Below are positions 4,106 to 40,374 of a stretch of 64,000 bases of DNA, in pieces. Position numbers and translations under genes: made by a program. The notes beneath the pieces were generated by a model that did not search any database, was not told the DNA's origin, and worked only from the letters and a program-made list of their open reading frames with translations. The first letter of the stretch is position 1. Every line of letters starts with the position of its first letter. Source of the DNA: Magallana gigas (lineage: Eukaryota); NCBI RefSeq assembly GCF_963853765.1, contig NC_088853.1, forward strand, positions 39,060,001-39,124,000, written 5' to 3'.

Positions 4106-4309
4106 TATAGTGTTTTTACACCTATATCATAAGTGGGTTGCCCCGAACTTACCGATACATAGCTGATTTGGTCTGTATTGGAATACGGCTTGTTCTCGTT
4201 TAGGCTGCAGTCCAAAGTGATCGGGGTCTTCACCATGAGCTCCCGCCAGGTGACGTCACAGCCCGTCATCATAGGTAACTCGTCCTTGGAGTAGTCGACA
4301 ACCACTACA
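4106..4309 (-). repeat. 3' LTR of element 1
   Basis: Direct repeat of 12958-13161; minus-strand ends TGTAG...CTATA; contains TGACGTCA (4251-4258) and CG|GTAAGT (4152-4147). Confidence 0.95.
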
Positions 4310-4327
4310 CTCCCCTCCGTTTTCTTC
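4310..4327 (-). other. Polypurine tract of element 1
   Basis: Minus strand GAAGAAAACGGAGGGGAG immediately before the 3' LTR. Confidence 0.85.
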
Positions 4328-4600: not shown

Positions 4601-5609
4601 CTACCACTCCTCCAGGATCAAGATGTGGACCCGGCGGGTTCTAGCATACCCGCGAGGATAGTCTACTGCTATGTACCCTCCTGTCGCAGTCCCAGGTGGC
4701 GGGCGGGGGAACTCCGGAGAGAACTCTACTCCCCTCGCTCTTCCTGCAACCCAGGGGTCCCAGGGCTCCAAGGCGCCCACCAGCTCATCCTCGGACGAGG
4801 TCGGGTCTGGGCCATAGTCCTCCGGCTCCTCCTCGGGCGGGGTCGCTGCTTCATCTACTTCGGTCTCCTCCCGTCTGAAGCTCTCGAGGGGTAGTGGCTT
4901 CATCGTCCTCGGACTCCTCCTGTCTGAAGCTCTCTGGAGGGGTAGTGGCGTCATCGTCCTCGGACTCCTCCAGGCAGATGCTCCCCAGAACTGGGGGATC
5001 AGGGGCATCCCAATCCTCATGGCAAGGACCCGGGGGCGGGGGTGGCAAGAGCCTAAACATCCCGTACTGCGACAATGGGTGCCCGCTGACTGTCTCGTTG
5101 CTCCACAGCTCCCGGTAGGCCCTCCTTAGGTCCGGGCCCAACCGGGAAACTAGATGTGCCTGTACCCTCCAATGTAACAGGAGAGCGGGATGTAGCCGAC
5201 CGAACAGGGCAAATCGGTGAGGGGGGTCCTCCCCCACAAACCGGCACAGTGCCTCCATGGCCCGATTCAAATCGGTGGGAACACCGGCGGCGGGCTTCTG
5301 GAACACTTCGCCTGTTGGGACGTCCCTCGCCAGGTCCTCTGGAGTGGCTCCTTCCCCCAGCAGGTGGTGAGCCATCCACATAAGCACGCGGTACCGGAGG
5401 CTGGCCCCCGCCTCAGGGGGCACAGACCTCCGGAACACTGGATGTAGGTGGGCCACTGTCACATGAGTTCTCATGGTGCGGGTCCGCACCAGGCACCCCA
5501 GGAACGGGCAAGTCGAACTTGGCCCTCTCGAACCTCTCCTCCTCGCGGCCCCCGATGGTGGGGGGGGGGGGGCTGCGGGGCCTCTTCTTCATCGTAATCA
5601 TCGTCATCT
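4601..5609 (-). CDS. Element 1 3' accessory ORF (env position): acidic/proline N-terminus, C-X4-C-X9-H-X4-H zinc-finger-like motif, helical domain, acidic 17-aa repeats; broken by two frameshifts
   Basis: Frame of ORF 4851-5489 is open from 5588 and reads PPPPPSGAARRRGSRGPSSTCPFLGCLVRTRTMRTHVTVAHL. The second 51-bp repeat unit lacks 2 nt, which shifts reading into ORF 4601-5020 (ESFRREETEVDEAATPPEEEPED...). No signal peptide or transmembrane segment is visible. Confidence 0.7.
4830..4970 (-). repeat. 51-bp coding tandem repeat (about 2.7 copies) encoding EESEDDDATTPPESFRQ-like units
   Basis: Units at 4920-4970 and 4871-4919 (49 bp, 2-nt deletion), plus a diverged third unit. Confidence 0.85.
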
Positions 5610-7432
5610 CTGTAAAATAAAAAGACCCTATTAATAATAATAGATATTCCCCCCATACACGTCGGACACACGAACTTGTCCATAGTGGTGGCGTCCTCCG
5701 GCGAGACACCCACACACAAGCCGTGGTACCAGCAGTCGCACTGGTCACACTGGACCATTAGTTTTCCGTCATCAGGACGATGACAGAGGCAATAAAGCTC
5801 GGTATCTGTGGATGTTTCTGGTGACTTTTCTGTGGTATCAGAGGATGACTGGCTGGGCCTCGGGGGTCGGTCTCCTCCTCGATAGGGTTCCTCAGGAGTC
5901 TTACCCAGCTTCCGAGGACGTCCTCTGCGGCGAGCGGGTTGAGGCCGACAGTCATCACCCTTAACTGGGCCCTCGAGTGCTCTTTTTCCCCGAGAGGTCG
6001 AACGTTGCGCCTCGGAATCTTCATCAGATCTTACATCACATGGTGAACCACTCACGAACTTCTCCCGATATCGGGCCAGCCACAAGGGAATATCCCTGTC
6101 GTTACACTTCTTAAGGCGGTCGTGGTTTGCCACCATCACAGCTGTCTTAGTCTTCACACGGTAAAGGTAAGGTGACAGCCTCTTGAGGATGATTCCTGGG
6201 CCCTTCCAGGATGGGCTCAACTTCCGGCACTTGCCCTTAACAGTCGCCGTATCTAGCAGGTATACCAAGTCACCCTCCTCAAAGGGGCGGGTGGCTGCCT
6301 TAATGTCAAAATCCCTCTTCATCCGCTCTTCCGAGGTGTTCAAGCGTCTACGGGTGGTCTCATGCGCCGACTGTATCCTCTCCTCTAGATCTGTCACATA
6401 AGTACAAACATTCACCGGATCCTCTTGAAGGGGAGGCCTGTACATTAAGCTGGCTGGTGTGTTAACTTCCCTGCCCAACATCAGTTTATTGGCGGTGAAA
6501 CCAGAGTTACGGTTCACTGCAGAGCGCAGAGCCCCGGCTATCTGTGCAAGATGCTCATCCCAACAATCTTGGGCCTTGTCAATGTAGCATCTGACAGCAT
6601 CCATAAGAGTCCGATTATAACGTTCAACCTGTCCGTTAGCCGACGAGCGATAAGGGGTGGTACGAGCCTTGTGGATCTCCAAGAGTTCACACACCGCCGT
6701 GAACAGCTTGCTCTCAAAATTACGCCCTTGGTCTGTGAAGATCTGGAATGGGCACCCAAACCTAACGAAGAACTCATTTACCGCGGCTGTAGCTGTAACC
6801 TCGGCCGTCTGTGAAGGGAGGGGAATGCATTCCACCCATTTTGTGAACTGGTCTACCATGACCAAGACATACTCATTTCCCCTCGGAGTCCGTGGAAGTG
6901 GTCCTAAGAAGTCCAGGTGCACCCTCTCCATGGGTGCCCCAGCATGGTACTTAATCATCTCCGCCCTGGCGTGGCGCTGGGGACGTTTGTTTCTACTACA
7001 AGGGCAACAAGTACTGACAAAGTTCTCAGCCTCTCTCATCATTCTGTACCAAAAGAAGTGCTCCCTCAGCCTGGCTTTAGTTCGTTCGATTCCCTGGTGT
7101 CCAGCTGCCGGCACCTCGTGGCAAAGGCGCAGTACCTCTCGTCTCAGGTCACGGGGCACAATCAAAACTCTTTTCCTCTCTCCCCCCTCCTCTATCTCTT
7201 TCCAGAGGACTTTGTCACTATCCAGATATAACATATTCCTGTTGATGTAGTAGTGTTTCACAGCCGGGCTGGTCAGAAACAATTCGCCCTCGTCTGGTCC
7301 CAGTTCTCCCTCCAACCAATCCAAGATCAAGCCTAACTCTGGGTCATTAGAGTGGCTAAGACTCATCTCCTTAAGGGTGAGGCCTACAAGTGACGTCGGG
7401 CCTTCGAGGTCCGCCGGAGAGACTCCCATCAC
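5471..7432 (-). CDS. Element 1 pol, part 2: integrase (HHCC, DDE core) with C-terminal AT-hook and PHD finger
   Basis: HEVPAAGH...CCPC; HLDFLGP, FTDQGRNFES, NGQVERYNR; RRRGRPRK; LYCLCHRPDDGKLMVQCDQCDCWYHGLCVGVSPEDATTMDKFVCPTC. This frame is open from 7576, so the shift from ORF 7429-11424 lies between ~7430 and ~7575. Confidence 0.93.
   Translation of the reverse strand: MMGVSPADLEGPTSLVGLTLKEMSLSHSNDPELGLILDWLEGELGPDEGELFLTSPAVKHYYINRNMLYLDSDKVLWKEIEEGGERKRVLIVPRDLRREVLRLCHEVPAAGHQGIERTKARLREHFFWYRMMREAENFVSTCCPCSRNKRPQRHARAEMIKYHAGAPMERVHLDFLGPLPRTPRGNEYVLVMVDQFTKWVECIPLPSQTAEVTATAAVNEFFVRFGCPFQIFTDQGRNFESKLFTAVCELLEIHKARTTPYRSSANGQVERYNRTLMDAVRCYIDKAQDCWDEHLAQIAGALRSAVNRNSGFTANKLMLGREVNTPASLMYRPPLQEDPVNVCTYVTDLEERIQSAHETTRRRLNTSEERMKRDFDIKAATRPFEEGDLVYLLDTATVKGKCRKLSPSWKGPGIILKRLSPYLYRVKTKTAVMVANHDRLKKCNDRDIPLWLARYREKFVSGSPCDVRSDEDSEAQRSTSRGKRALEGPVKGDDCRPQPARRRGRPRKLGKTPEEPYRGGDRPPRPSQSSSDTTEKSPETSTDTELYCLCHRPDDGKLMVQCDQCDCWYHGLCVGVSPEDATTMDKFVCPTCMGGISIIINRVFLFYRDDDDYDEEEAPQPPPPHHRGPRGGEVREGQVRLARSWGAWCGPAP
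5610..5640 (-). promoter_or_regulatory. Predicted 3' splice acceptor of element 1
   Basis: Minus strand ...ctattattattaatagggtctttttattttacag|AGATGAC: an AT-rich island with branch-like sequence, pyrimidine tract and CAG, inside an otherwise GC-rich element. Confidence 0.75.
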
Positions 7433-10400
7433 GCAAGCGAACTGAGGGTACCTGCTGATCCGGATATGGGTCCTACAAGGTCCATCCGGGCTACTCTCGC
7501 CCTCAGAGTCAATCTCAGGATAGGAAAACCGCCAGTCCGTCCCAGAATTCCTCCGGATACATATCCGAGGGCTATCTCACTGACCGATGGCTGGGCTTCT
7601 CCGGATGCACGGCCGTCTACTGTCCCCTCGAGCTCGTCCTCCAGCAAAGGAGAGTAAATCCAACTTCCTGGCCTAGCAAGCGGGGCTACATCGTCTACCT
7701 CATCAGTAAATACATTCCACAATTGATGGGCTCTGGTGCACTTACGACATCCACCGCAGGGCAAGTCACTAAGGTTCACAGCGAAGTCCACCCCCTGACA
7801 TCTGGAAGACATGGTTGGTCGAGAAAGCGCGTCAGCATTCACGTGACGCTTACCGGGCCGATGTTGGATGACCATATTGTACTGGCTGAGCTCCTCCAAC
7901 CAACGAGCTAGTTGATCCTGGGGGTACCTAAAGTTCAGCAACCAGATGAGACTATGGTGGTCCGTACGTACAATAAATCTCCGGCCTAGTAGATAATGGC
8001 GATACATGCGTGTGAACCGGATGACGGCCAGGAGCTCTTTCCGAGTAGTACAGTATTTTTTCTGCTCCGCGGACAAGGTGAGGCTCCCGTAGGCTATGGT
8101 TCGCTCCTGCCCCTCTTGGACTTGGCACAGCTCGGCTCCTATGGCTTCTGCAGACGCATCTGTGTCCAGCACAAACTGATAATTGGCTGTAGGCAGAGCT
8201 AGTACCGGGGGTGAAGTGAGGGCTCTCCGGAGGTTCTCAAAGGCTGTCTGCTGCTCAGGCCCCCAAACAAAGGGTTTCTTGCCAGTGATGTTATACAGCG
8301 GATGCGCCATCTGAGCAAAGCCAGCAATAAACCCTCTATGGTAATTGGCGAAGCCTAGGAACCGCTCCACCTCCTTAACATTAGTGGGAGTCTCCCAATG
8401 CTTCACGGCCTCTATGTATTCATCACCCATCTCTACTCCCGTCCCGCTGACCTGCCTTCCCAGAAACTCTACTCGGCGCCGGAACAGCTCACACTTCTTG
8501 GGCTTGAACTTCAAGTCATAATCTCGGAATCGCTTGAACACTTGTCTCAAGATAGCCAGGTGGTAATCAAAATCACTCCCCAGCACCAGGGCGTCATCCA
8601 AGAAGGCCAGTACGATACTCCAGGTCAGCCCGCGTAACACTAAATTCATTGCCCGGGAGAAGGTAGCAGGGGCATTACAGAGACCAAACCCCATTCTCCG
8701 GAACTCAAATAGGCCATACCGGGTAATGGAGGCAGTTTTTTTTCTGTCCTTGGGGCTGATCATAATTTGATGAAATGCGGAGTTAGCGTCTAGCTTCGAG
8801 AACCACACATTTCCCGAGAGGGTATCAAGGCACTCATCAATGAGGGGAAGGGGAAAAACATCCTTCCGGGTGACATTGTTCAACCGGCGGTAGCCGAGAC
8901 ACCACCTGACTTGTCCGTCCTTCTTACGGATGAGGACTGGCGCTGAAGCCCACTCGGACATGGAGGGCTGGATCACTCCAGCGTCAAGCATCTTTTTGAG
9001 GTGCGCCTCCTCTTCGCCCGCAAAGAATACAGGAGTACGCCGCATCCTCTCCTTGACTGGCGGTGCATCTGCAGTGTCAATCTCATGCTCAAGGGCAGTG
9101 AAGTTTCCAAAATCAAACTCACTCCGGGCAAACACATCTTGGAACTCAGACAGCAGGCTAGCAAGTTGGGACCGCTCCTCATCACTCAACTCCGCAGAGG
9201 ATCGTTCTAGCAGGTCCTGCAAGTGGGTGGGTACTTCCGGTGGTGTGCCCTCGGTCCCACTCTCAGCCATGTTACGCACCTCCCTCATCAAATAGGGCAC
9301 CGGCACGTATGGCTCCGCCTCGACTGCCTCACCGATAACACTGCCCTCCTCTAAGGACACATCCTTTCCAGATGCATGAACTAAGCAAGCCAGGGACGCC
9401 TCTCCCGCAGCGTGATACGTATGTGGCATGATTAAGGCATCCGACAAGTCCTCAATCCTTGGCACAACCAGGTAATCTGACAGTCTTCTCTCTAGCCTAA
9501 GAGGGCACATGACTACAGAGCCTGCAGGAACTCGAACCTTCCTCACCAAAGTCACATTGGCCTCCGTCCGAGCATTCCCCCGTCCATAGGTCATCTGAAT
9601 TGTCTCACCGCCGAGAATCAGTATCCCATGCCTCAGGTCAAGCTGAGCACCGTGGTCTCTCATGATGTCCATCCCCAGTAGCATCTGGTCCTTGAGAGGA
9701 GCAACATACAGGTCAACCTTAAGTGTGCGCTGGCCCACACGAAAATCAAATGGTCCTGCTACAAAACCCTTAAGTCTCGCTCCGTGTCCTGCCTGCAGCA
9801 AGGTAACATGCCTTTTAATAGGGGGCTTTTGTTCTAGCTGGTCATAAAACATCTTCCCTAGGACACTTACCTCTGCCCCGGTGTCCGCCACGGCCTCTAT
9901 AGATAACCCTTGGATCCTCAATGGAACCGAGTAACTGGTTTGTGGGCGTACCTGCCCCACCACCACACACAGGTCCTCTACCTCGCCGGCCGTCTCACTG
10001 GACTGGGGCATCCAGTCCTCTTCAATGTCCTCCATGACCTCAACCTCAGTCTCCCTAAACTCGGCAATCTCTACACTGAAATCCGCCACACGCTCCGGAC
10101 TCTGGTCGGTTGGAGTTGAGAATCCCCTCCCCGGAACCACAGGTTCATCATCAGAAAACAGATCGGGTGACTTGGACCGCTCAAATCTCACCTTCAGCCC
10201 ACTACGTGCCTTCCCGCTCTTCATGCAAGAGCGGGCCTCAGCTGCTTGCTTGTCACAACTTGACTTCTCCGTAGGTTGTCCCTGAACTCTATCATCTACT
10301 GGGTGCCTTCCTGCCTCCGTATTTCTATCCGGGGTCAGCATGCGCACGGCTCCTGAAGGCCGATTCTCACTGGAGGATCTATTCCTGAACCTAGGTCCTC

Positions 10401-11424
10401 CGCGGTTCCCCTCTGCTGGGTTGGCACCTCGATTGGGTGGGGGGTGTCTCTCTGCCCCACCTACCCCTCCATCTGACCTACGCCTATTATCCAAAGGGCA
10501 CTCCCGACGGAAGTGTCTTCTTTCACCGCACCTGTAGCACAAACTTTCCCTGGGACCCCCACTCTTACTCATAGGTGATGGGGTGGCCTCAAGCTTCCCT
10601 CCGGCCTCCCTCAGGGCCATCTCCAGTTGATACACCCGTCCTCTCAAGTCCTGCACCTCTTTACTCTCTGACAAGGCGGGGGTGTCTCTCTTCTCCCTCA
10701 GGGCTTCTTCTAGCTTCTCATCATTAGACTTCCTGTCTGCCTCCACTTCCTCTGACCAAGCGACCTCCTCTGTCAACTCCCTCACTGTCTTATGCCGGTG
10801 AGGCTTGCTGCGGCGCGAGTGTTGGTAATACTGCATTCTGTCCAATGCCTCCTCGACCGTCTTAGGGCTGCCATCCAGCGCATGCAGGCCAGCGTCAACA
10901 TCTTCCGCACCATAGCATAGGCGGGGGATAGCCTGGGTGTGAATGTCTGGCAACTGGGGGAAAGCTCGTGTGGCTAATGTGAGCACACGATCTGCCCACT
11001 CTCTCAGGGACTCACCGCTGTTCTGCGTTGCCGACTGGAAATTGAGTTGGTGGGTGAGATCCGGAGCCGAGGTACCAAAGCGCTTGTCAAACTTCTTGAG
11101 GATGTCCTTAAACCGTGGACGGGGACAGACTTCCAGTAGGAGAGTATAATACTCGCTGGCTGCGCCCTCCAGGAAAAAGCAGAACTGGTCATGTTGCTCG
11201 ACCTTGGTCCATTGCTGGCTGCGCGAGAGCCTCACGAACTTATGAAGGAACGCCTTCCAGCTGGATTTGCCATCATACCGCAGGTCCTTGTACTTCGGCT
11301 TGCTACGGGGCGCAGGTGGCCTGTCGTCGTGACTGCGTAATGTGCGGCGCGAGGTAGTGGTAACAGGGTGGGGCAAGGGCTGGGTAGGTAATGCAAAGGG
11401 TGGACGATGTTGCCGGGTCAGCAA
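7429..11424 (-). CDS. Element 1 gag-pro-pol, part 1: capsid-like gag, CCHC knuckle, aspartic protease, RT, RNase H
   Basis: YDGKSSWKAF (gag); CYRCGERRHFRREC; VADTGAEVS (protease); YRRLN, PLPLIDE, MGFGLCNAPATF, FLDD (RT); LDTDAS, ELLAVI, TDHHSL, NADALSR (RNase H). Confidence 0.95.
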   Translation of the reverse strand: MLTRQHRPPFALPTQPLPHPVTTTSRRTLRSHDDRPPAPRSKPKYKDLRYDGKSSWKAFLHKFVRLSRSQQWTKVEQHDQFCFFLEGAASEYYTLLLEVCPRPRFKDILKKFDKRFGTSAPDLTHQLNFQSATQNSGESLREWADRVLTLATRAFPQLPDIHTQAIPRLCYGAEDVDAGLHALDGSPKTVEEALDRMQYYQHSRRSKPHRHKTVRELTEEVAWSEEVEADRKSNDEKLEEALREKRDTPALSESKEVQDLRGRVYQLEMALREAGGKLEATPSPMSKSGGPRESLCYRCGERRHFRRECPLDNRRRSDGGVGGAERHPPPNRGANPAEGNRGGPRFRNRSSSENRPSGAVRMLTPDRNTEAGRHPVDDRVQGQPTEKSSCDKQAAEARSCMKSGKARSGLKVRFERSKSPDLFSDDEPVVPGRGFSTPTDQSPERVADFSVEIAEFRETEVEVMEDIEEDWMPQSSETAGEVEDLCVVVGQVRPQTSYSVPLRIQGLSIEAVADTGAEVSVLGKMFYDQLEQKPPIKRHVTLLQAGHGARLKGFVAGPFDFRVGQRTLKVDLYVAPLKDQMLLGMDIMRDHGAQLDLRHGILILGGETIQMTYGRGNARTEANVTLVRKVRVPAGSVVMCPLRLERRLSDYLVVPRIEDLSDALIMPHTYHAAGEASLACLVHASGKDVSLEEGSVIGEAVEAEPYVPVPYLMREVRNMAESGTEGTPPEVPTHLQDLLERSSAELSDEERSQLASLLSEFQDVFARSEFDFGNFTALEHEIDTADAPPVKERMRRTPVFFAGEEEAHLKKMLDAGVIQPSMSEWASAPVLIRKKDGQVRWCLGYRRLNNVTRKDVFPLPLIDECLDTLSGNVWFSKLDANSAFHQIMISPKDRKKTASITRYGLFEFRRMGFGLCNAPATFSRAMNLVLRGLTWSIVLAFLDDALVLGSDFDYHLAILRQVFKRFRDYDLKFKPKKCELFRRRVEFLGRQVSGTGVEMGDEYIEAVKHWETPTNVKEVERFLGFANYHRGFIAGFAQMAHPLYNITGKKPFVWGPEQQTAFENLRRALTSPPVLALPTANYQFVLDTDASAEAIGAELCQVQEGQERTIAYGSLTLSAEQKKYCTTRKELLAVIRFTRMYRHYLLGRRFIVRTDHHSLIWLLNFRYPQDQLARWLEELSQYNMVIQHRPGKRHVNADALSRPTMSSRCQGVDFAVNLSDLPCGGCRKCTRAHQLWNVFTDEVDDVAPLARPGSWIYSPLLEDELEGTVDGRASGEAQPSVSEIALGYVSGGILGRTGGFPILRLTLRARVARMDLVGPISGSAGTLSSLA

Positions 11425-12422
11425 ACTGGGCGGCCCATCGGGGGCCTGGGTTCTCCCGTAATCAGGTGAAGGGTCCGGTCCCTGGGTGGGGGGCCATTGG
11501 GTTGCTGTTGGGCATGAGCATGTATGCTAGGATTAAGAAAGTGTACCCCGGTCTCCCTGGGAGAGGACTCGTTCATTTGTGGGTAAACCTGAGCTACTCT
11601 ACCTCCCCCCTCCTGTCTAAAATAATAAGGCTGGGGCGGCACCACAGGTGCAGGGGCAGGATAACCAAGGCTGCTAGATGGAGGTACGAACAGGCCCCAG
11701 GGGGTGCCATCAGGGCTAACTACAGTTTGATAGCCCGGGAAGGGGTAGGGCGTGGTATGTGCATAGCCTGGGTCGACATGTGACTGGTGTAATTGCCCCG
11801 AGGTGGAAGTCCCCCCACTAGATGTCACTACAATCTGTCCCTGGGTCGTAGAGGTCTGCGTTGTAGAGCCCTGCAACTGCAAATCAGTGAGCTGGGCCGA
11901 ACTAGGAGCTACATAATTGTTCCCCGAAAACGGATTCGTCAGGACTGAGGAGGCCCCCAGGTGACTGGCATGCTGACCCCCCAAGGGCTGGGGTGCGGGG
12001 CCTGTGGCCCCAGCAGGAGAGGGGTGGGGCTGCTGACCAGGGGTGGGTGGGGAATCGAAGACCAGGGACTGGGGTGCCAGTACATGACTGGCTGAAGATA
12101 CCGGCTGAGGCAAAATAACAGGATCCCTGGACTCAAGTGTAGCCTTAGCACTATGGCCTGGTGGGGATTTCCCAGGGGTAGGGGCCACATAAGAACCGCG
12201 TGAGATGGGGTCCCCATATATAGCACTGGGTGGGACAAAGTCATAATCCCCCACCGGCGAACTGCATCTTATTACAGACCCCTGACTAACACACGAATGT
12301 ACTTCACTAGGGACCTGAAACTGTGCTGGCCTAATATAACTGTCACCCTGGGTACTACCAACCCCCCTCCCCTGACGGTTGGGCAACGCAGTTTCACCCC
12401 GAAGGTACCCCGTACTACTCAC
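11418..12422 (-). CDS. Element 1 Pro/Ser/Gly/Thr-rich ORF, probably the disordered N-terminal extension of gag
   Basis: 334 open codons that overlap both neighbouring ORFs in the -1 frame; no early ATG (the track start is GTG). Confidence 0.55.
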   Translation of the reverse strand: MSSTGYLRGETALPNRQGRGVGSTQGDSYIRPAQFQVPSEVHSCVSQGSVIRCSSPVGDYDFVPPSAIYGDPISRGSYVAPTPGKSPPGHSAKATLESRDPVILPQPVSSASHVLAPQSLVFDSPPTPGQQPHPSPAGATGPAPQPLGGQHASHLGASSVLTNPFSGNNYVAPSSAQLTDLQLQGSTTQTSTTQGQIVVTSSGGTSTSGQLHQSHVDPGYAHTTPYPFPGYQTVVSPDGTPWGLFVPPSSSLGYPAPAPVVPPQPYYFRQEGGGRVAQVYPQMNESSPRETGVHFLNPSIHAHAQQQPNGPPPRDRTLHLITGEPRPPMGRPVC

Positions 12423-12649
12423 CGGGGGGTGACTTCCTCGCTGTCTGAAGCAGAGTACATGTGCTCTCTCACCGATGATCTAGGAGTGTAAAGGTGCTCA
12501 TCCTCTTCATCACTTAGCCAACCATAACTATGCTTGCGAGACGAGCGCCCAATTTGAACAGAAGGTTCCCCCATGGGCGTTATGGTGTCATCGCTATCAC
12601 TTTCGCTAAGCCCTAACGCTGCAAAGGCATTCTCTAAAGAATCGTTCAT
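12423..12649 (-). CDS. Element 1 leader ORF / predicted first coding exon (MNDSLENAF...EEVTPR)
   Basis: First internal ATG I found after the leader (aaaATGa, 12649). The ORF ends at CG|GTGAGT: its TGA stop lies inside a consensus splice donor (intron start 12422, phase 2). Confidence 0.6.
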
Positions 12650-12945: not shown

Positions 12946-12956
12946 GTTGGGCGCCA
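12946..12956 (-). other. Primer binding site of element 1 (tRNA-Lys type)
   Basis: TGGCGCCCAAC one nt after the 5' LTR; matches the first 11 nt of the tRNA-Lys(CUU)-type PBS TGGCGCCCAACGTGGGGC. Confidence 0.85.
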
Positions 12957-12957
12957 A

Positions 12958-13161
12958 TATAGTGTTTTTACACCTATATCATAAGTGGGTTGCCCCGAAC
13001 TTACCGATACATAGCTGATTTGGTCTGTATTGGAATACGGCTTGTTCTCGTTTAGGCTGCAGTCCAAAGTGATCGGGGTCTTCACCACGGGCTCCCGCCA
13101 GGTGACGTCACAGCCCGTCATCATAGGTAACTCGTCCTTGGAGTAGTCGACAACCTCTACA
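12958..13161 (-). repeat. 5' LTR of element 1
   Basis: Direct repeat of 4106-4309, followed by TSD TATG. Confidence 0.95.
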
Positions 13162-13359: not shown

Positions 13360-14250
13360 TTAGGTCACCTGAGTAGAATGTAAAACCTCTTCTTATAAAC
13401 TACAAGGCTAATTGTTATCATTTTTGGTTTGAGGTATATCTATGGTAAGGGAATCTAAATTGTGAAATTCAAAAATTTACAAAAATCTTCTTCTCTACTT
13501 TCACACAAGAAGGGAAAAACTGGTTGTATGGTTATATTGTCCATGGAACTCTCTACCGAAATGATGAAATTCTTGGCCCCAGGGTCAGGAATTCTAGCTC
13601 TAGGATGAGGCCAAAATGGCCATGAAGTAGAAATATAATAGGTCTTAGAACATCTTTTCTACTCCCATATATATTTGTTGAAAACCAAATGCATGGTTAT
13701 GATGTCCATGAAACCCTCTACAAAAATGGTAAAATTCATGACCCCAGGGTCAGGGGTTCAGACTATATGGCCATATAGTAAAAATGATTATGATGTCCAT
13801 GAAGCCCTCTACCAAAATTGTGAAACTCATGACCCCTGTGCTATGGTTTCAGGCTCTAGGGTGGGGCCACTATGGTAATACGGTAAACATGTATTATATC
13901 TTAAAAACCGTCTTCTTTACTCCCAAACATGTGGGCAAAAAACTGAATACATGGTTATAATGTTCACTTACTTCCTTACCTAAATTGTGGAATTCATGAC
14001 CCCTGGATCAGGGGTTCAAGACATGAGGGGGGGGGGGGGTCAATATTGGAATATAGTGTTAATACATATAATGTTTTAAAATATTCTCTATTCTCACACA
14101 TCTGTATGAAAAACTGACTTCATAGTTATGTTTACCAGGAAGTCCTCTACTGAAATTTTGAATTTCGTGTCCCCTGGAGTATGGGTTTTGACTATAAGGC
14201 AGGGCCAAAATGGATGTATAGGTGTTCATGCAAATAATGTTTAAAAAATC
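13360..14250. mobile_element. Degenerate Helentron-like element with roughly 170-185-bp internal repeats
   Basis: Starts taggtcacctgagt; motif catgacccc(a/t)gg(g/a)tcaggggttc recurs near 13550, 13735, 13825, 13995 and 14165. Confidence 0.5.
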
Positions 14251-26400: not shown

Positions 26401-29200
26401 GTGGAATCTCTGATAATCTTAAGGCTTTCACGTTTTCATTGAAAATACATGCAAATCCTTTTTTAAAGGACAGCAACTTGTTGTTTCCTTAAATGTCCTT
26501 AGATCAACGCAGTATTTGGATATATCGTCAGTATGATTCTTTCTGCTCGGAGGATTTTTAAACCAGTCTTCCTCGGGTTTCGTTGAGGAATTGTGACTCT
26601 GGTCTTTCTATCTGCTTTGGACCTTTGTAAAAAATATCATTAGAATAATACCAATCGTACACTAATTAAACAACAGAACAAAATACCCACATATACACTT
26701 AAAAACTACACAATTTACATGTATATCAATTTCAACACAAAAGTGCCATATCATTTGCTAATTGCATTGCTTTTTTTCTATGTATATTATGTATAATTTT
26801 CAGTTTTTAAGGAAACTTACTATGAAATTCCTCTCGTTTTCTTTATATTGTAAGTTCTTCTGAGCATTCCTTTAAGCAACGTTTACATATTCTAATATGT
26901 ATAAGACACATGGTCTCCCTGTAAGCAAATTGCAAATTGTAAGTGAGGTAAGGAATACGAAATGATTGCTGTTCATATAACTATGTTAGATTAAATCGTG
27001 ATAATTGTTTTTAATTCTTGTTCATAATATATTACTATTAATAATAAAATCAGATGATTTCAATTTTTAACATAGGCAATTACCATCCGAATACAAGACT
27101 TTTTAGACCTATTCAATTGTTCAAATTGTTTTAATATCGATGCAGATATTTTCTTCATGTTCAGCTCACCAAGCGTATTTGAGAACATACATACTTTTTT
27201 TTTTAATTTTCAAGAGAGGAAACAAAACCTGGAAAAAGAAATTGATTAATATAAATGTAGAAAGCTATTTTTTATAAGTGCCACATTAAATCATTCAAAT
27301 ACCTACCATTGTCAGCAAAGTCATCAGAAAAAAAAATAGATAACACTAATTTTAAGAATATATCGTTTTCGTTAAAACAATAATACAGTTGTATTCAAAC
27401 ATTATATTACAAACATCAATACTTTACTTTGATGAATACACATGCAAATATTTATAAAAACTTAAATTTGTTACTATGAACTTCTGCATCTAAAATTGAT
27501 TTAATTTTTCTTTAAAAGTTAATTTCGACAAACCTTCCGGGCGTTGCGTTTATCTGAAACAAGATATATCATTTAAGCCATTGTAAATAATACTGGTAAA
27601 TTGAAGTAAAAACAAAATGATATCAACGTCAAAGAAAGATATTCTTAAACATCAACAAGTCACACTTGATATCATATTATATATATAATCTAACTCTCCA
27701 TTATATACAAAACATATCAACTTTGGTTTCGTTTTCTTACTTTTGACAACATACGTTTCAGTCGTAGACAGTACAGTGCGCAGAATGGTATTTGTTTACG
27801 GGTACCATTCATAATCCTCTTTAATCATCAAGATATGATACCTTTGCTTCCCAAGTATCACTTTATTTGATCATGCTTAGAAAAAAAAAACACTTACCAT
27901 ACATCTCCAAAAACAGCCATCATTACAATGATATCAGCTTATCTGTTGTTAATTGTTACATTGCGCATTACATGCACCATTCGCGGTTTTCTTCTATTTT
28001 TTATATTTGAGTTGTCACGAAATATACAGTACGGTTTGCAAAAACATCTTAAAATAATAAAAACCGTAAGTTAAATTGATTCGTGTATCAGCGACATAAA
28101 GTAAGATCGGATTAGAGATTGTAAACATTTATGTACAGCATATATGTACTTACCTGCTTTGAGGACAAAAGCAAGTTTATATTTCCCCAACACAGAAACT
28201 CATTCATCTGGCGACGTTGCGAAGAATTATTGCTATCGAGGGGAACATTAACTTTCTATTGTCCGAATAGTCAGAAAATATATTGTTTTTTATTATGAAG
28301 AAAACTGTATTTGTAATCAATTAATGTTTTTATGTTTAACAAATTAGAGTAATCGAACTTTGAATTTAATTTGGCAACTTGAATTACACCATGCATGTTC
28401 CTATATAAAAATCGAGAGAAATCAATTCTATAGGCGTAAAGTTTCGATTATTATACACCATGGGTATTGAAACTTTTTCATGATTATATCGAGTAGCAGT
28501 TTTTCCCTCGTAATTTTACATAAAGAACATTCACAAAAAATGAATTGAATATTAATAAGTCAAATTACTTAACCCTGTAATACAAGAAGTATTGATAAAT
28601 TGTTGAAATTTAACATAAAAAAACACAGTATATATCGTTATAATCAAAATACGATAAAACAAATTGTGTGCAACTTACGTTGTTTGAATTTATTTTGTTT
28701 TAGTGACCTTAATAAAGGTATATTACTCAAAACAAACACTGTAGATATCTGGTAAATTTCCGTTTTATTGGACTTACCTTGATTTCTTTTCACTGTCTCT
28801 TCATTTTTTATTGACAATTTCAAATTTACATCAGTATTAACAATGCAGTGTAAAACATATGAATAATCTATTTAAATATCCATCTATGCTTAATTTCAGA
28901 GATGGTCTATGTACTCACGTACGTTACACAATTCTCCTTGATACATATAACCTTTTATAACATTAGTTAAGCATGTTCCATTGATACGGAAGAACTGGCT
29001 TATTACGTTACTACAATGTATGTTTGCCACAAGTAAAACGTAAACATGTTTATGTTATCAGTACTTCATTTTAATCGCATCGTGTAATTAAAAAAAATTG
29101 TTTTTACCAACTTTTTTTTTTCAGTATCATTTTTTAAGATATTCTTTTTTATAATAATAAGTAGCTAGTTTCGTCTTTGCCTTTGTGTTTGTATACTCAC

Positions 29201-29338
29201 GTGATTTACATAAGTCCCTTTCATAACCATCATCACATCCAGTCAAGCAAGAGCCATTAACATTGGAGCATTGTTTTACATCACGACAGTGTCCGCATGT
29301 TTCATTGCATTCAATACCATACGATCCTTTGTTACATT
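29201..29338 (-). CDS. Host gene A EGF-like exon (last confidently located exon)
   Basis: 138 nt, AG/GT, phase 1-1; CNKGSYGIECNETCGHCRDVKQCSNVNGSCLTGCDDGYERDLCKS. Confidence 0.9.
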
Positions 29339-31093
29339 CTTAAACAGTAAAAAGGTATATAAAGATATTAATTGTACAAAATGTAATATTGTTTGTACAA
29401 TGCATGGTGGCGCAAAAACAGTATTTTTGCTTTAATATGATGTAACGCTTGCAATGTTCACCATGTACTATGTGATTTGTAAGCCTTGATATGAACTTGT
29501 AGTGATATGCTATGAAAAATTCTATGATAAATCGAATTAAATGCTCAACGACATTTATGCTATTGTATGCAACCACATTAAACCAAAAAACACATTAGCA
29601 TACAGCAGTTTTGATCATATTCAAGTAAGTCATAAAATGAATTAACAATAATTTGAAATTCAAATAACATTATTTTTTGAAACACTACCAATAGAAAAAA
29701 AGTTTATCTATATTGTTACTGATACGTGAAAGGTGTTTTAATACGAATGTTTTCTTCCATTTCTCTCTGTATTGAATTATACCCATAAGTAATTATTGTA
29801 AAAAATCTTGAAATTTTGAAAACCCAGACTGTTAAAGCAAAACAATGCGAGTAAGGTGGTAAACATGTTTCGGTGGATCAACCTTAATTGACGATGGGGG
29901 AGGGGGAGGGGGGGGGGGGTTGTAAAATACTGTATACTTGCAATGAAATGATGTTGAATAATAAGATAAATAGGTAATATATCAAGCAGTAATATTTTTA
30001 GATTATTCATAAAATTGAGGATTTAACCAACTTTTAGAAAATAAAAAAGCTCGTTTTCTTCTTTAATTTTTTTTTTGATTTTTTTTTTAAAGTGAACCAT
30101 GAACATCAGATTGCGTTGACAGCTAAACTGTGTATATGATATTTATATGAATAAATGATAAACGCATCAATGGTTACATTGCCTCCTGACGTTGCCTCCT
30201 GAGAAGCGGGAATGAGGGAAGGCTTGTATTCTATTTACATATAGGAACATATTAAGGACAGTGTTAATTAGGAAGTGAATGCTCATGTTTTGATGTCGTC
30301 GGTTCTTTGACACACCAAGCGGTGCATACCAATTGGTGCGAGTTAGCGTGGTATGATAATATGTCTGCATCGCTTGGTGTGTCATATGACCGACGACATA
30401 AAAAAATAAGCATTCAATGCTTATATTTATATTTTATTACTGATGTCTACATGAAGTATTGTGTATCGCCGCTATAAAGCCATTATTTACGCTCTTGGTC
30501 AGGGATATGAAAAATACATGGACCAACCATATAAACATGTTATTTAGAAAGCTTCCGCTACAAAAACAATGTGCCAGAAACTTTGTGGAGAAAAATATTT
30601 TTAATTAGGGAGTAGGTATATATTAATGTTTGTTTTTCAAAAGTACATATGAAATAGGTAATTTTTTATTGAAAACTTCATTTAATCTGATTAGAAACGT
30701 ATAGCTAAATTTGTACTCACGTATTTATATACATATATTTAAAAAAGATGTAATTTCGACCAAATGTTCTTAATTAAAATTGAAATGAATACAACTTTGA
30801 CCCTTCTGGCATTGGATACTTTCAATGTATATTTATCAACATTGCTTTAATAATTCTCATTTCTACCTTAGCTTGCACAAAGTAAATTTCCCTTAGAACC
30901 ATGCTAGGTTTGCGCTTTTAAGTACTTTCAGTACTTTGATTTCATATAACAAAGAAGTTTGTACATGTAGCCTAATTGAACCGTTAGCTCTCTGATTGTA
31001 GCCATGGATACAACCAAGTTCATACAAACCTTTTGCATCACGATATTTGTTAATTCATCATTGAATTTCTTATTACACTTATTTCCAAAATAC

Positions 31094-31234
31094 GTATTTT
31101 ACAATCATATCTATGATGACCTTTTTCATAAACAGTTAAGTATTTTCAATTTGTCTCAAAGCATTGGTCAATATCACGACAGTTTCCACAATTTTCTGTG
31201 TGTAATCAACGCCCTATGACATGTTGTCACCACC
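31094..31234 (-). pseudogene. Dead EGF-like exon copy
   Basis: Retains CGNCRDIDQCF but has TAG and TGA stops, lost cysteines and an indel. Confidence 0.7.
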
Positions 31235-31392
31235 GTAATTATTCAAAAACAATCAGCATGAAAAAAAAAAAAACTGATCAACATCAGTGATTTATACTAT
31301 GGACACATATACATTTCGATGTTATGAATCGCATGATTATTAAGATCGCGATGTTCGAAATAAAAAAACATTTGTCTCAATAGCATACTCAC

Positions 31393-31530
31393 GTGTTGTA
31401 CACAAGTCCCCTTCAAAACCAGCAGCACATCCTATTATGCATATTCCGTCGATATTGGAGCATTGATTCACATCACGGCAGTGTCCACATGTTTCATTAC
31501 ATCCATTACCATACGATCCTCTGTCACATT
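31393..31530 (-). CDS. Host gene A EGF-like exon
   Basis: 138 nt, AG/GT, phase 1-1; CDRGSYGNGCNETCGHCRDVNQCSNIDGICIIGCAAGFEGDLCTT. Confidence 0.9.
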
Positions 31531-33484
31531 CTACAATGATTAGAAATAATAGTTGTATATTATCCCAGATACCTGATAAATAACATAAAAACCAAGTTAT
31601 CTGAGAATAGTTTATTTGGCGCTTCTGGCCACCGTGAAATTATGGAGGCTACCGCAACAAAAGCAAGCAATCAAAAAGCAAAGCAACAAGCATTGCTCGG
31701 AATAATAAGAAATAAATAAAATTAGCATAAATAGTAAATACTTAACGGGTAAAATGAACGATTTTTGATTACTGTTGCATTCTGTTCTGACTATCATACC
31801 CTCGCGTGATTTAAGCTGAACATAAATAAAATCCATGTAAATAAATTTAATCGATCAACAATCTTCATAAATTTAGACCATCCATATATATTACTTCTGG
31901 CAGCTTACCCCATTACACAATATGAGTTGAATGCTTTGTTATCTCAGCCATAAAAATCAAGATTATGTAAAAAATTATTTTAGCAAATTTACTACGTCTT
32001 ACCTAATCCACGACTGTTTTAGAAAAGGGATTATTCTAGAAGGGAAGTAACTAATATTAAAACACCCGTTAAAACCCAACCTGATCATACTCAAAATTTC
32101 CGGCTAATAGTTACTGAGATAAATGCGCATATCTGAGACAAGCTTCAATATTATTTTAATGTACACGTACATAACAATAACTATATCCACGCTTAACCTT
32201 CATCTGTGTTTGTCCTTATCATTTATCTTTCAAGAAGTAATCATGTACTATGCACAACAATGTGTGCTGTAACAAAACATGTGCATTTGTGCAGCTGCAT
32301 TAACGCAGGTTATTTATGTAACGGATTTTATAATTAATATTACAGTTATTGTGGTGGATCGCATTCCGTTTCCATGCAATCCGTTTATATCAGTTTATTT
32401 TGTCGAAATTGTCATGAAATGTTTTCCGTATTAACCTTTGGCGCTATATTCTAGCTTCGCACATTTTCCTATGTTCCAATGCATTCTGTCTTTCTACTCT
32501 TGCCAAAACTTAAAGTCATTACCAGTGTAAGTAAACATATATGTATTTTGTACATTATTTCTTTCAAAATTCGGTATTACCATGATTTCTTTAAACCTTT
32601 CGGTATATAACGGTGTAATGTTTACATTTTTTTGGTTCACTTGACCTACATTGTCAACCTATACCTGTATCATAATGTTTACATAGTTTTTGCATTTGTA
32701 CTTTATTCTAAGTCTGTGTTTTGTCTTGTTTGCAGCTTTTACGATATTAAATCGTTATTTATCTTTAAAAAAAAAAAATGATAATCATTGTCACGTACTA
32801 ATAAATATTCAATGCTAATTTATTGTAAATAGATAAACATGCTTTTTGATTTGGGTTGGGATATTTATTGTTTATTTTGGGGTTTATATTCTAAACATTA
32901 TCAATTATTCTAGGACAGCATCTATATTAAAACAGTGTTATTGCTTTTGAAAAAAACCCACAAAAAAACGACTCATTTGGTTCATCTTAAACAGAAATGG
33001 TTTGATAGAATGTGTTGTCATTCCTGCTATCTCTAATATTCAATACTGAGTGCGCGATCATCCCTGCTTAATTATATAGCATCAATACAAGAGTGCGGCT
33101 ATTCCTGCTTGTTTTGGTGGTGGCTGCAGCGGAGTACTAATGAGTGTGTGATCATCCTTGCTGGTGGTCTTACCATTGCGTCGCAAATAATGTTTCCGTT
33201 GTTGGCGAAAGTGTGCGATATTGTGTGCTTGCTTAAACGCTGATACCTGTTGAGTTGCGCATGCTGCAGGCATCACTGGTTGCATTACATACAGTCCATA
33301 TATAGGTGCAGGCACGCTGAATAGGTATGCATTTTTACATATTGGCAACAATCAGAGCTATTCAAGTCTATCTCGAGTAGGGGCTTGTGGGGGAACACAT
33401 GCAGCGACCCTCTTACACGTTATACAAAAGTATACAGTTTTATCTGATAAAGACAGCAATGACTCTACAAAGAATATGTAACCA

Positions 33485-34155
33485 TTTTTGGGAGTTGATT
33501 TTAATCAACTCTCATATTATGCAGTTACTCGGACAAACCGAAAGTGAAACAGTGTTTGGACCTCAGCACAAATCATTGCTGCTGACAAGACTTAGTTTTT
33601 GAATTTTTTTTTGATAAATTCGATGTAATGTATGCTAAAGCATTGTTTTTCAAGGGAACTTATTTATGAATACCTTGAATATAGTCAGATTTTAAATGGT
33701 ACGAACAATTTAGATATTTTTTGTAGTCGTATGTATTCCTACGCCAGAGTTCAATACAGTCTCGTTCAATTCGACGCTCGGCTGGTTCCGTAAATCTCCG
33801 ACAAGCAGAGAGTCTCTCTTGCTTGTCGGAGATTTACGGTGTCAGCCGAGCGTTTGGTTGAACGAGACTAGAGTTCAATATTGCTTGGATCCATACAATT
33901 TTCGAGAAATATTTTTATTACTGATACATAGTTTGATTGAATTAATTTTATCTTCAAATATTATTTAACATGATTCATATGGGAATTTCTCGACATTCTT
34001 GTCGAAAAAGTCCAAAAATTCATATTATAAAAATGTGCGGAACTTAAATACAAATTAGAAACTACATGTACTTGTCATGCAAAATAACATATCATTGATT
34101 TTAAAATAAATAAACATCGACAAAATCAACTCCCGTCAGTTCTTCAGTACTTTAA
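33485..34155 (+). mobile_element. Non-autonomous Helentron-like (HINE) element with a nested palindromic MITE
   Basis: Subterminal inverted repeats GGGAGTTGATTTT (33490-33502) and AAAATCAACTCCC (34122-34134); 5' hairpin GAGTTGATT-TT-AATCAACTC; inverted copy at 41915-42578; absent from duplication copy B. Confidence 0.7.
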
Positions 34156-34246
34156 TATAATATTACAAGTACACTATAAATTTACTTGGTTATTAATCCA
34201 CTACAATGCATGCTTACATATGTGAAACATATTTACAAGCACTCAC

Positions 34247-34384
34247 GTGTTTTACACAAGTCTCCCTGATATCCACCCTCACTACCAGTTAAGCATGTTC
34301 CATTTGTATAAAAGCATTGGTCGATTTCACGACAGTTTCCACATTTCTCTTTGCAATCAAAGCCGTATGAACCGTTGTCGCAAC
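34247..34384 (-). CDS. Host gene A EGF-like exon (one Cys to Ser)
   Basis: 138 nt, AG/GT, phase 1-1; CDNGSYGFDCKEKCGNCREIDQCFYTNGTCLTGSEGGYQGDLCKT. Confidence 0.88.
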
Positions 34385-34803
34385 CTAAATTTTGAAAAAT
34401 TATTCGGTTGAAAAATGATCATTGTATGTGATACACAAACATAAATACATGCTGATATTTTGAAAAAAATGATAAGATATTTGATTGGACTACCATTACA
34501 TATATTTTAGACATTTTAAGACGCACATAACACACGTTTAAAATGTCATGATTATTATATGTAATACAGAGAAATCGAAGATATATTCAGTTAGAAAAAT
34601 TTATATTGATATTTTATGACTGAAGTTTTTAAAATTTAAACCAGAGATAAAGTTAAAATCGACATGTTTCTTAGTAAAATATGACATCATGCTGTTTATT
34701 GTGACGTCATATCGATGAGAGGAATTTTTACTCAATCGATCGCTGAGATTTGCCTTTTCATACCCGCGTACACTTATTTCCAAAATGCAGTTTCAAATTG
34801 TAC

Positions 34804-34944
34804 GTATTTTACAATCATCTCTTTGATAATCTTTATAATAAACAGTTAAGAATTTTTAATTTGTGTCAAAACATTGGTCAATATCAATACAGTTTCCATA
34901 GTTTTTTGTGTGAATTCAAAGCCCAATGACATGTTTTCACCACC
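34804..34944 (-). pseudogene. Dead EGF-like exon copy
   Basis: Duplicate of 31094-31234 with further decay. Confidence 0.65.
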
Positions 34945-35113
34945 TTAATTATTAAAAAATAATCAGCCTGAAAAACTTGATCAACATACGTGATATATAC
35001 TATATACACATATACGTTTTCATGTGTTGAATAGCATGACTATTAAATCGCAGTCTTCGAAAAAAAAAAACCCAGAGCGATCTCAACATTTGTCTCAGTA
35101 TCTGCATACTTAC

Positions 35114-35251
35114 GTGTTGTACACAAGTCACCTTCAAAACCAGCCGCACATCCTGTTATGCATGTTCCATTGATATGGGAACATTGGTTTACATCACGAC
35201 AGTGTCCACATGTTTCATTACATTCAATACCATACGATCCTCTGTCACATT
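35114..35251 (-). CDS. Host gene A EGF-like exon
   Basis: 138 nt, AG/GT, phase 1-1; CDRGSYGIECNETCGHCRDVNQCSHINGTCITGCAAGFEGDLCTT. Confidence 0.9.
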
Positions 35252-36588
35252 CTACAATGATTAAAAATAATAGTTGTATATTATTTTAATGTACACGTAC
35301 ATAATGGCGCGCATGTTTCATCTTTAGCTTTACAATAACTATATCCATGCTTAACCTCCATATATGTTTGTCCTTATCATTTATTTTTTAAGAAGTGATT
35401 ATGTATTATGCATAAAATTGTGTGTCGACGATTTAGTTTCCGTAACAAAAGATGTGCATTTGTGTAGTTGCATTAACGAAGGTTATATATGTGACGGAGT
35501 CTATAAATATAACAGTTATGTTAAACATTAAAGCACAGGAATAAGCGTTCTGACAGAAAGGAAATGAGAACACTTTTGTCATTGTAGAAGTAACCTATCC
35601 GGAGAAGGAATCAACCAGAGAGTCACACAATATATTTACATCATCACACCCGGTGCATGCATCACTGCATTTCTTATTATTATTTTGTTAGAAAAACTTA
35701 TCAAACATGCTAATGGAAATATAAGAGGAAATTAATTGATACAAATGACGGAAGGAGGTTTTTTCTGTTGATAATTGCATTGCCCTTTAATTTTTCAAAA
35801 ACAAAAATGATAATTATTTTCATGCACCAATAAATATACAATGCTAAGTTGTAAATAAATAAACATATTTTTGAGTTGGGTTAGGATATTAATTGTTTAT
35901 TTTTGGGTTTATAATCTAAACACTATAAGTAATTCTAGGCCGGCATTTATATTATAACATTATTTTTTATTTTGGAAATAAAGGAAACGGCTAATGGGGT
36001 TCATCTTAAACAGATATGGTTTGATAGAATGTGTTGTCATTCCTGCTATCTCTAATATTCAATACTGAGTGCGCGGTCATCCCTGTTTAATTCCCAATTA
36101 ATACAAGAATGTGGCAATCGCTGTTTTGGTGGTGGTTGCAGCGGATCACTTATATGTGTGTGTGATCATCCTTACTGGTGGTCTTACCATTGCGTCGCAA
36201 ATATACGGCACTACCTGATTGTGTTATGTTTGCGTTGTTGGCGAAAAAGTGCGATACTGTATGCTTGCGTAAACGCTGGAACCTGTTGAGTTGCGCATGC
36301 TGCAGTCATTACTGCCTACATAACATAGAGTCCCTATATAGGTGCAGACGCGCTGAATAAGTATGTATTTTTTACATATTTGCAGAACTCAGAATTATTC
36401 AAGTCTATCTCGAGTACGGGCCTGCGGTGGAACACATGCGGCGAACTTCTTACACGTTATACAATGTCATACAGTTTTATCTGATAAAGACAGCAATGAC
36501 TCTACAAAGAGTACACTATAAATTTACCTGATTATCAATCCACCGAAATGCATGCTTACAAATGTGAAACATATTTACAACCACTCAC

Positions 36589-36726
36589 GTGTTTTACACA
36601 AGTATCCTTGATATCCACCATCACAACCAGTTAAGCATGTTCCATTTGTATAAAAGCATTGGTCGATTTCACGACAGTTTCCACATTTCTCTTTACAATC
36701 AAAGCCGTATGAACCGTTGTTGCAAC
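36589..36726 (-). CDS. Host gene A EGF-like exon
   Basis: 138 nt, AG/GT, phase 1-1; CNNGSYGFDCKEKCGNCREIDQCFYTNGTCLTGCDGGYQGYLCKT. Confidence 0.9.
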
Positions 36727-37093
36727 CTTAATTATGAAAAATTATTTGTTTAAAAAATTATCAGAATATGTGATACACAAACATAAATACATCCTGATGT
36801 TTTGAAAGATATTTGATTGGACTGTCATTTCATATATTTTAGACATTTTAAGAAGCACTTAACACACGTTTAAAATGTCACTATTGTTCTGTTAAATAAT
36901 GATCCGAGACAGTGTTTTATGTTTCCGCTTTATATAATTTAATGTCGTCTTGTAGTTGCATAAACGAAATTTTAATCAATCTTCATTTATGCAACTTAAG
37001 AATTAAGGTATTTATTATCAATCAAATGACTTGATTTGACAACAGATCGTTATATTCAAAGCTTGACTGGTGCCTTGCCGATTTTCTACTCAC

Positions 37094-37231
37094 GGGTTTC
37101 ACATAATTCTCCACTAAAACCAGCGTCACATCCAGTTAAGCAAGAACCATTGACATTGGAGCATTGGTTGATATCTCGACAGTGTCCACAAGTTTCTTTA
37201 CATTCAAGACCATATGATCCTTTGTCACATC
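37094..37231 (-). CDS. Host gene A EGF-like exon
   Basis: 138 nt, AG/GT, phase 1-1; CDKGSYGLECKETCGHCRDINQCSNVNGSCLTGCDAGFSGELCET. Confidence 0.9.
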
Positions 37232-40290: not shown

Positions 40291-40374
40291 AAGGTTGAAA
40301 AGTATGTCATATGTCTTCAGCCATGCATATATATGTTAAATATTCTATTGGGTACTACGTAGATGTCTACATAC

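Follow-up and report, generated by a model that had tools for sequence, protein, structure and literature searches.

How does a retrotransposon express a conserved open reading frame (ORF) that lies downstream of pol and has no likeness to an envelope gene? The question is raised by element 1, a Ty3/gypsy long terminal repeat (LTR) retrotransposon of 9,056 nt on the minus strand (13161-4106) of a 64,000-nt stretch of the Magallana gigas genome (assembly GCF_963853765.1, contig NC_088853.1, positions 39,060,001 to 39,124,000), which is referred to here as the window and whose numbering is used throughout. The family to which this element belongs likely splices from a donor inside the 5′ LTR to an acceptor just after the PHD finger, with the LTR supplying the start codon, to express a non-envelope 3′ protein. 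A preliminary description of the same DNA had proposed a splice that skips gag and pol, starting either from a donor at the end of a short leader ORF or from the LTR. Its skipping splice, non-membrane and non-env 3′ product, env-like expression logic, acceptor at 5609, and LTR donor at 13004 hold up in an analysis that included 40 related loci from the genome (564 Mb in 29 contigs), while the leader-ORF donor and a proposed translation start at MTMITMKKRPR do not. The preliminary description also missed two features: open copies have the 3′ domain in the same frame as Pol, and relatives have it fused to TatD.

The 5′ LTR (12958..13161, 204 nt, TG...TA ends) carries an ATG at 13012, 8 nt before a donor, in the context ATG TAT CG/GTAAGT (the slash marks the exon boundary, 13005/13004). 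The predicted first exon thus has its coding end at 13005..13012, in phase 2, and the donor GTAAGT (12999..13004) lies 47 nt before the LTR end. Read without splicing, the same bases form a three-codon upstream ORF (uORF), M-Y-R-stop. The acceptor region (5610..5634) consists of a branch-point-like TTAAT (5634-5630), a T-rich tract, and the acceptor AG at 5611-5610; as the preliminary description stated, the boundary between tctttttattttacag and the exon is at 5610/5609, a short way past the PHD finger (about 5791-5657; Pfam PHD, E 6.6e-9). In the Pol frame, this acceptor divides the codons TAC AG/A GAT and is therefore also in phase 2. Because the LTR exon and the acceptor share this phase, the predicted join reads M-Y-R-D-D-D. 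The splice, which is well supported, would remove the primer-binding site (PBS), gag, and pol, a total of 7395 nt in the window. The PBS, TGGCGCCCAAC (12946..12956), which we take to be of the tRNA-Lys type, lies inside the predicted intron.

The start codon and the donor travel together. Among 37 distinct LTR ends, recovered by their donor-side pattern, an ATG at −8 is present in all 27 with a GT donor and in none of the 10 with a GC variant; nine of these variants come from pol-less elements or fragments of subfamily C, and one is unclassified. When the ends are grouped into five exon types, ATG, donor, and the final G of the exon stay constant among variable neighbouring bases, and in all five the unspliced reading of the LTR ATG is M-x-R-stop. 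Integrase synonymous sites are saturated between the window's subfamily (A) and its sister subfamily B (proportion of synonymous differences, pS, 0.89), yet the LTR ATG and donor have not changed. A single donor-like site is unremarkable because five matches to NG/GTRAGT occur on the sense strand of element 1 (13005, 12423, 11016, 9871, and 4153). On the other side of the predicted intron, the 5610 acceptor ranks second by T content among 102 AG-free YAG sites and is the best of those past the 5′ leader. Of the 16 copies with a PHD end, 13 retain its AG; L046 and L070 have an altered sequence there, and L035 has lost it by deletion. The frame that follows it reaches the finger of the 3′ protein in 6 of 15 copies and is cut short in L046.

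Evidence for the join itself comes from proteins and from one genomic copy. Four of 205 proteins (P0010, P0013, P0016, and P0086), all public assembly proteins of subfamily B, start with MYRDSD. P0013 and the unspliced-type P0015 are identical but for M-Y, which stands in P0013 in place of the end of the PHD finger plus LVLFF, and P0086 derives from a different copy with the same M-Y-R start. No M-x occurs at the junction position in any of 23 distinct genomic contexts. An artefact of gene calling, in which a TTG or GTG start is written as M, was considered and rejected because the same copy reads F-F-R when unspliced, so that two codons differ. A chimera with a host exon is unlikely because two different copies share the M-Y-R start. 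Copy L067, whose LTRs are 98.9% alike, lacks ~1.4 kb that begins with GT inside integrase and ends exactly at the 5609-type acceptor. It is the sole loss ending at the acceptor among 10 distinct internal losses (14 rows minus one artefact and three duplicates), for which a rough chance estimate is below 0.01, and it resembles a retro-copy made from spliced RNA. In Ostrea edulis, the RefSeq model P0206 has M fused straight to the homologous position, at which SICRRRRL stands in unspliced-type proteins; a join in phase 2 is the likely reading. Long fused forms were absent at E 1e-8 from an alignment-based search, which is weak evidence.

The product of this splice would be a conserved domain with none of the marks of an envelope. 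In the window, the 3′ accessory domain occupies 4851..5588 and comprises a C-x4-C-x9-H-x4-H finger from ~5510 and a helical bundle ending LLHWR; an acidic tail with the conserved C-terminus RRVHILILEEW (4601..5125) follows in its own frame, past a further break near 4885. The ratio of nonsynonymous to synonymous substitution rates (dN/dS) over the core of 138 codons is 0.12-0.46 (36 pairs from nine copies) and 0.12-0.26 between subfamilies, which indicates that the domain is under purifying selection. In an alignment of 62 sequences, nine positions reach at least 90% conservation: C, C, H, H, G, L, P, L, and W. They include C77, C82, H92, and H97, which fall in a predicted hairpin followed by a helix but give no Pfam C2H2 match. 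The predicted structure is confident (predicted local distance difference test, pLDDT, 93; predicted template modelling score, pTM, 0.86) and packs the hairpin-helix finger with the helical bundle. Foldseek returned no match at E 0.001 in PDB or viral libraries, and the best Z among 48,161 chains was 2.8, which does not by itself prove the fold to be novel. No Pfam family, DEDDy and GDSL/SGNH included, was found for the window's 3′ ORF or for an open sister copy, and atlas look-ups of the protein gave no match at ≥0.9. Features of an F-type envelope are likewise missing from the 3′ ORF, which has no hydrophobic segment (maximum 19-residue mean 0.65 for P0007), no Pfam family, and no viral fold match. 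Copies L034, L037, and L044 and the proteins P0007, P0017, P0021, and P0028 carry the domain in the frame of Pol. In the window copy, it is out of frame with the acceptor as a result of a break at or beside a C run (5572-5560), and the spliced product predicted from this copy is only a 48-residue peptide.

Relatives of the domain extend well beyond the family of element 1. A domain search of 1.84 billion representatives gave 129 matches, with Mytilus, Ostrea, and bivalve-symbiont bins among the names. In 30 of 44 longer or more distant matches, chosen by hand, a TatD domain follows the matched part, one of the 30 being below the Pfam cut-off. Cellular TatD proteins in PDB do not match the accessory domain, and the matches cover the TatD part of the profile only. 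The same domain-TatD fusion is found in gypsy elements of the oyster's own genome, including some with LTR pairs 100% and 99.6% alike. Among the young elements with this fusion, in which it forms a separate 3′ ORF, are L163/L164 (C4, ~11.735-11.743 Mb), L165/L166 (C3), and L171/L172 (C10), and the C4/C3 family is present in at least four near-identical places. Pfam assigns TatD (PF01026) at E 1.7e-40 and 9.5e-35 in L164 and L171, respectively, and finds none in the window's element. The TatD ORFs of L163-L166 and L171/L172 carry H-x-H, E, H, H, and E-x-D motifs, which we take to be the usual ones of the family. The window ORF matches a TatD-family ORF at E 1e-8, and the structure predicted for a domain-TatD fusion (pTM 0.59) has a low-confidence linker and no sign of fixed packing. 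In a midpoint-rooted reverse transcriptase (RT) tree of 15 own-genome elements, TatD-bearing elements fall on three branches around TatD-less groups, which suggests that TatD may have been lost in the latter.

In five more distant gypsy loci of the same genome, pol ends at the PHD finger and the domain is a separate ORF. The distant families, TatD-bearing ones included, have a T-rich acceptor past the pol stop and an ATG below it. In 7 of 10 LTR types, G/GTRA(G/T) precedes the LTR end by 24-72 nt (0.03-0.12 each by shuffling), against 0 of 10 on the other strand. It is possible, and no more than tentatively proposed, that a broad bivalve gypsy lineage carries an unrecognised accessory gene spliced from an LTR donor, whose product has a new zinc-finger/helical fold and was ancestrally joined to an active TatD nuclease; the window's subfamily would then be derived, having lost the nuclease, moved the start codon into the LTR as a three-codon switch, and fused the domain to integrase-PHD. 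Such a lineage would be the first of TatD-armed retrotransposons, with a nuclease acting on element cDNA or RNA:DNA hybrids or against host silencing.

Domain-TatD ORFs also occur outside recognisable elements. Three single-frame ORFs of 727, 732, and 1177 codons (L123, L125, and L121 on C8, C5, and C9) lack pol and LTRs in the 19 kb examined around them. The C9 ORF may be a domesticated gene because it contains two copies of the domain and has a close Ostrea relative, P0106. Four entries named 'TatD family hydrolase' in bivalve-symbiont bins (P0121, P0163, P0166, and P0184; contigs of 3-12 kb) bear the domain as well and may be host DNA.

How the two forms of the domain would be made can be outlined. 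Full-length RNA would be translated into Gag-Pol after the three-codon uORF, which is small enough that ribosomes could proceed to Gag, and the domain would stand at the end of Pol. On the spliced RNA, the same AUG would start the domain alone, giving in open copies a product of ~340 residues that consists of M-Y-R-D, an acidic stretch, the C2H2-type finger, the helical bundle, and the acidic tail. Both Pol-fused and separate forms would thus be made, and the spliced RNA could not be copied back because its PBS has been removed. A second use of the LTR donor could be to block 5′ polyadenylation through U1, in the manner of foamy viruses; TGTAAA at 12972, downstream of the donor, is the only sequence found to resemble a poly(A) signal. 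As for function, a plausible though tentative suggestion is that the 3′ protein is a zinc-dependent nucleic-acid-binding helper that acts in the nucleus on RNA or cDNA of the element itself and aids replication or integration. In relatives, the domain would bring the TatD nuclease to the same substrate, and in the window's subfamily the nuclease would have disappeared and the domain become linked to integrase.

Several observations weigh against an LTR-to-acceptor splice. The MYRDSD proteins all come from Logan contigs of 1.0-1.4 kb and are known here as protein sequence alone, and the L067 loss, whose breakpoints share 2 nt, may have arisen by template switching. Both concern subfamily B (~74% DNA and 88% RT identity to the window's subfamily), and there is no direct splice evidence for the window's own subfamily: the MYRD start is found in 0 of 12 members of the window's protein cluster, and the window's predicted short product has no match among proteins of 24-79 aa. 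The 27 GT-donor LTR ends are related rather than independent and were chosen by the donor-side pattern, as the 15-85 nt window of the donor test in distant families was chosen after the data had been seen. The pol-less copies L063-L065, which have B-type LTRs and no 3′ domain, retain both ATG and donor. Two further ATGs at 13124 and 13121 (phase 0), just above the TGACGTCA site, would interfere if transcription started above them; they presumably lie upstream of the transcription start. Finally, the post-acceptor frame is shifted in 8 of 15 copies, including all three full subfamily-A copies in the assembly; the shift is not universal in the subfamily, since the public proteins P0007, P0017, and P0021 read through the acceptor region in frame. 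The donors kept by L063-L065 would also suit a subfamily that has no separate spliced gene and uses the 3′ domain only as the C-terminus of Pol. No spliced-type subfamily-A protein occurs among the proteins compared, the Pol-fused copies and proteins named above agree with this alternative, and a foamy virus donor upstream of the poly(A) signal has a polyadenylation role according to PMC3694450. It is nonetheless improbable, as U1 binding requires no ATG at −8, and a domain confined to Pol leaves unexplained the MYRDSD proteins, the acceptor-ending loss in L067, and the acceptor at the same place in families where that position is non-coding. A different challenge accepts the splice and questions the role assigned to the protein, which would act on the LTR as a transcriptional trans-activator or against its silencing, or would counter silencing by small RNAs. 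Foamy virus Tas and human T-cell leukaemia virus (HTLV) Tax are trans-activators of this kind. The zinc finger and acidic tails of the 3′ protein, the adjoining PHD reader, and the conserved TGACGTCA site in the LTRs are compatible with such a regulator, and the nuclease ORF3s of bdelloid rotifers have been discussed as possibly touching silencing (PMC5408684). In-frame fusion to integrase, and to a DNase-family enzyme in relatives, would better fit work on element nucleic acid, and a regulator is rather unlikely.

The remaining alternatives place the start of the 3′ protein elsewhere. The leader gene of the preliminary description was accurately observed: ATG 12649 opens a frame of 76 codons that reads EEVTPR-stop across CG/GTGAGT at 12423/12422, and joining 12423 to 5609 bridges 6813 nt and is in frame, as sequenced, with DDDDYDEEEAPQPPP, whose frame is separated from the zinc-finger-like ORF by one shift at or beside the C run. 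The donor sequence is found in L031, L032, and L051 as well. This 'leader ORF' (12419..12649), however, is the N-terminus of Gag, which is open from the same ATG for 855 codons in L031 (97.7% identical to the window) and for 215 in L032; a 4-nt difference near 12435 sets the window apart from both. A frameshift unique to the window copy closes the leader, and the join at 12423 is in frame in that copy alone. There the donor is in phase 2, whereas in L031, L032, and L051 it is in phase 0 and the join reads Pro-Arg-stop. Nor is the donor conserved: of the 23 copies that have a Gag start, 4 carry CCG/GTGAGT, these being 4 of the 6 copies of the window's subfamily. L052 has an altered site, L053 lacks it, and so do subfamilies B and C. 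An RNA spliced at 12423 would retain the PBS and could be copied back, yet the junction occurs in 0 of the 40 loci. A separate leader gene is thus very improbable, its donor being rejected on the ground of phase. Scarcely credible is a splice from the LTR donor followed by translation from the ATGs just after the acceptor. Such ATGs exist in the window, L031, and L032, but the MTMITMKKRPR frame closes at 5413 and is distinct from the finger frame, and the frame conserved and selected after the acceptor is the other one. ATG 13012 moreover precedes these ATGs on the same RNA, and the proteins observed begin with MYRD.

The window copy is a broken member of this oyster Ty3/gypsy family, and its close protein relatives carry the names Magallana (Crassostrea) gigas and angulata. 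The paired LTRs of element 1 mismatch at 3 of their 204 positions and have TG...TA ends, not the usual TG...CA; the element also has a PBS and a polypurine tract, and its target-site duplication is 4 nt long, CATA. The window LTR ends at 12958 and 4106 follow subfamilies A and B, which end in TA, and the pol-less subfamily C ends in CA. The TGACGTCA site at 13110 is presumably cAMP response element (CRE)-like. Pfam domains occur in the order gag, protease, RT, RNase H, integrase, and PHD finger, distributed over several frames. After the closure of the Gag N-terminus near 12435, Gag continues in another frame (11418..12479) to a break near 11481. Gag capsid, zinc knuckle, protease, RT, and RNase H share a single frame (7429..11526) up to a break near 7524, and integrase and the PHD finger occupy a frame (5471..7576) that continues through the acceptor. 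The next breaks are those at the C run and near 4885. Because the C run is a homopolymer, the break there, like the shifts after the acceptor in other copies, may be real or an assembly error. The element closes with a polypurine tract and the 3′ LTR (4106..4325; LTR 4309-4106), which holds a second copy of the ATG and donor (4153/4152).

The 5′ leader contains acceptor-like sites of its own at 12898 and 12746 (minus strand). A leader acceptor ~220-250 nt above the Gag ATG is found in most copies of subfamilies A, B, and C, with a phase that is not conserved, and splicing to it from the LTR donor would leave the Gag-Pol message without its PBS. Use of the 12746 acceptor to make a membrane-type Gag with an extended N-terminus was considered and rejected, since the join is in frame in L031 and L052 only and its phase varies across 23 copies. 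Elsewhere in the genome are pol-less elements of 4.5-5 kb (L054-L056 and L063-L065), whose Gag-like ORFs are long and whose LTRs are near-identical; a single 3′ region occurs with two LTR types among them, which suggests recombination between subfamilies. Gag-leader fragments of subfamily C (L057-L060 and L062) cluster on one chromosome arm (C8, 48.4-50.3 Mb). The window also holds a second gypsy element on the minus strand (element 2, 57252-50367), with an acceptor of its own, TTATGTTATTTCAG, just past the pol stop and a 227-codon ORF after pol (51883-51200) that has weak C2H2 matches and is a different domain from that of element 1. Other repeats in the window are a 78-nt family upstream of element 1 (13528-14199), tandem arrays of 15 nt (47703-47882) and 167 nt (61116-61780), and 181-nt repeats dispersed over 29191-40545.

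Outside insects, most third ORFs of LTR elements are, to our knowledge, still unassigned. The oyster third ORF now has mapped predicted splice sites, a start codon that would serve as both uORF and first exon, and a conserved domain that matches no family or fold. Young elements, with LTRs 99.6-100% alike, offer in their TatD fusion an enzyme that can be tested directly, and many bivalve 'TatD-like' gene models, as well as some 'TatD family hydrolase' entries in bivalve-symbiont bins, may derive from host retrotransposons. The literature search, which left outside Repbase Reports, most subscription journals, and supplements, found no report of a coding micro-exon in an LTR, of dual expression with Pol, of this domain, or of TatD in retrotransposons; the main text of a paper on mollusc LTR clades (PMC6238403) lacks 'ORF', 'splic', and 'PHD'.

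The expression logic is already known, since start-supplying exons have been described in errantiviruses and non-env ORF3s in bdelloids. In insect errantiviruses, the 3′ ORF is expressed from a spliced sub-genomic RNA whose first exon gives the start, be it a short peptide exon upstream of gag (ZAM and Beagle), an AU dinucleotide (springer), or part of gag (idefix), according to PMC12992720. The oyster element would resemble them in this respect, while its 3′ product differs from errantivirus Env in having no signal peptide, membrane segment, or Env similarity and in being encoded in frame with Pol as well. The Springer donor lies 43 nt downstream of the LTR (PMC13097621), whereas that of the oyster is inside the LTR, upstream of the PBS. 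The major splice donor of foamy viruses is also inside the LTR, is present in both LTRs, and controls polyadenylation (PMC3694450); the oyster donor, likewise found in both LTRs, differs in carrying a predicted coding micro-exon. Among MDG1-group elements, PMC11952523 describes sORF1 and sORF2 as lying upstream of gag and unspliced. They share with element 1 the presence of non-env accessory ORFs in Ty3/gypsy, the oyster ORF being 3′ and predicted to be spliced. Bdelloid rotifer LTR elements encode non-env ORF3s (a DEDDy exonuclease or a GDSL esterase), typically from spliced messages (PMC5408684), and thus resemble the oyster lineage in having a non-envelope third ORF, including one of the 3′-5′ exonuclease type. 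TatD enzymes are 3′-5′ exonucleases and apurinic/apyrimidinic (AP) endonucleases, according to PMC10085689, and the full domain of the TatD DNases (PF01026; TATDN1, TATDN3, and E. coli TatD) is present in the related gypsy elements and missing from that of the window. The oyster relatives thus differ from the bdelloid elements in carrying TatD and not DEDDy, whereas the window's family has the zinc-finger/helical domain only, with its predicted splice sites mapped.

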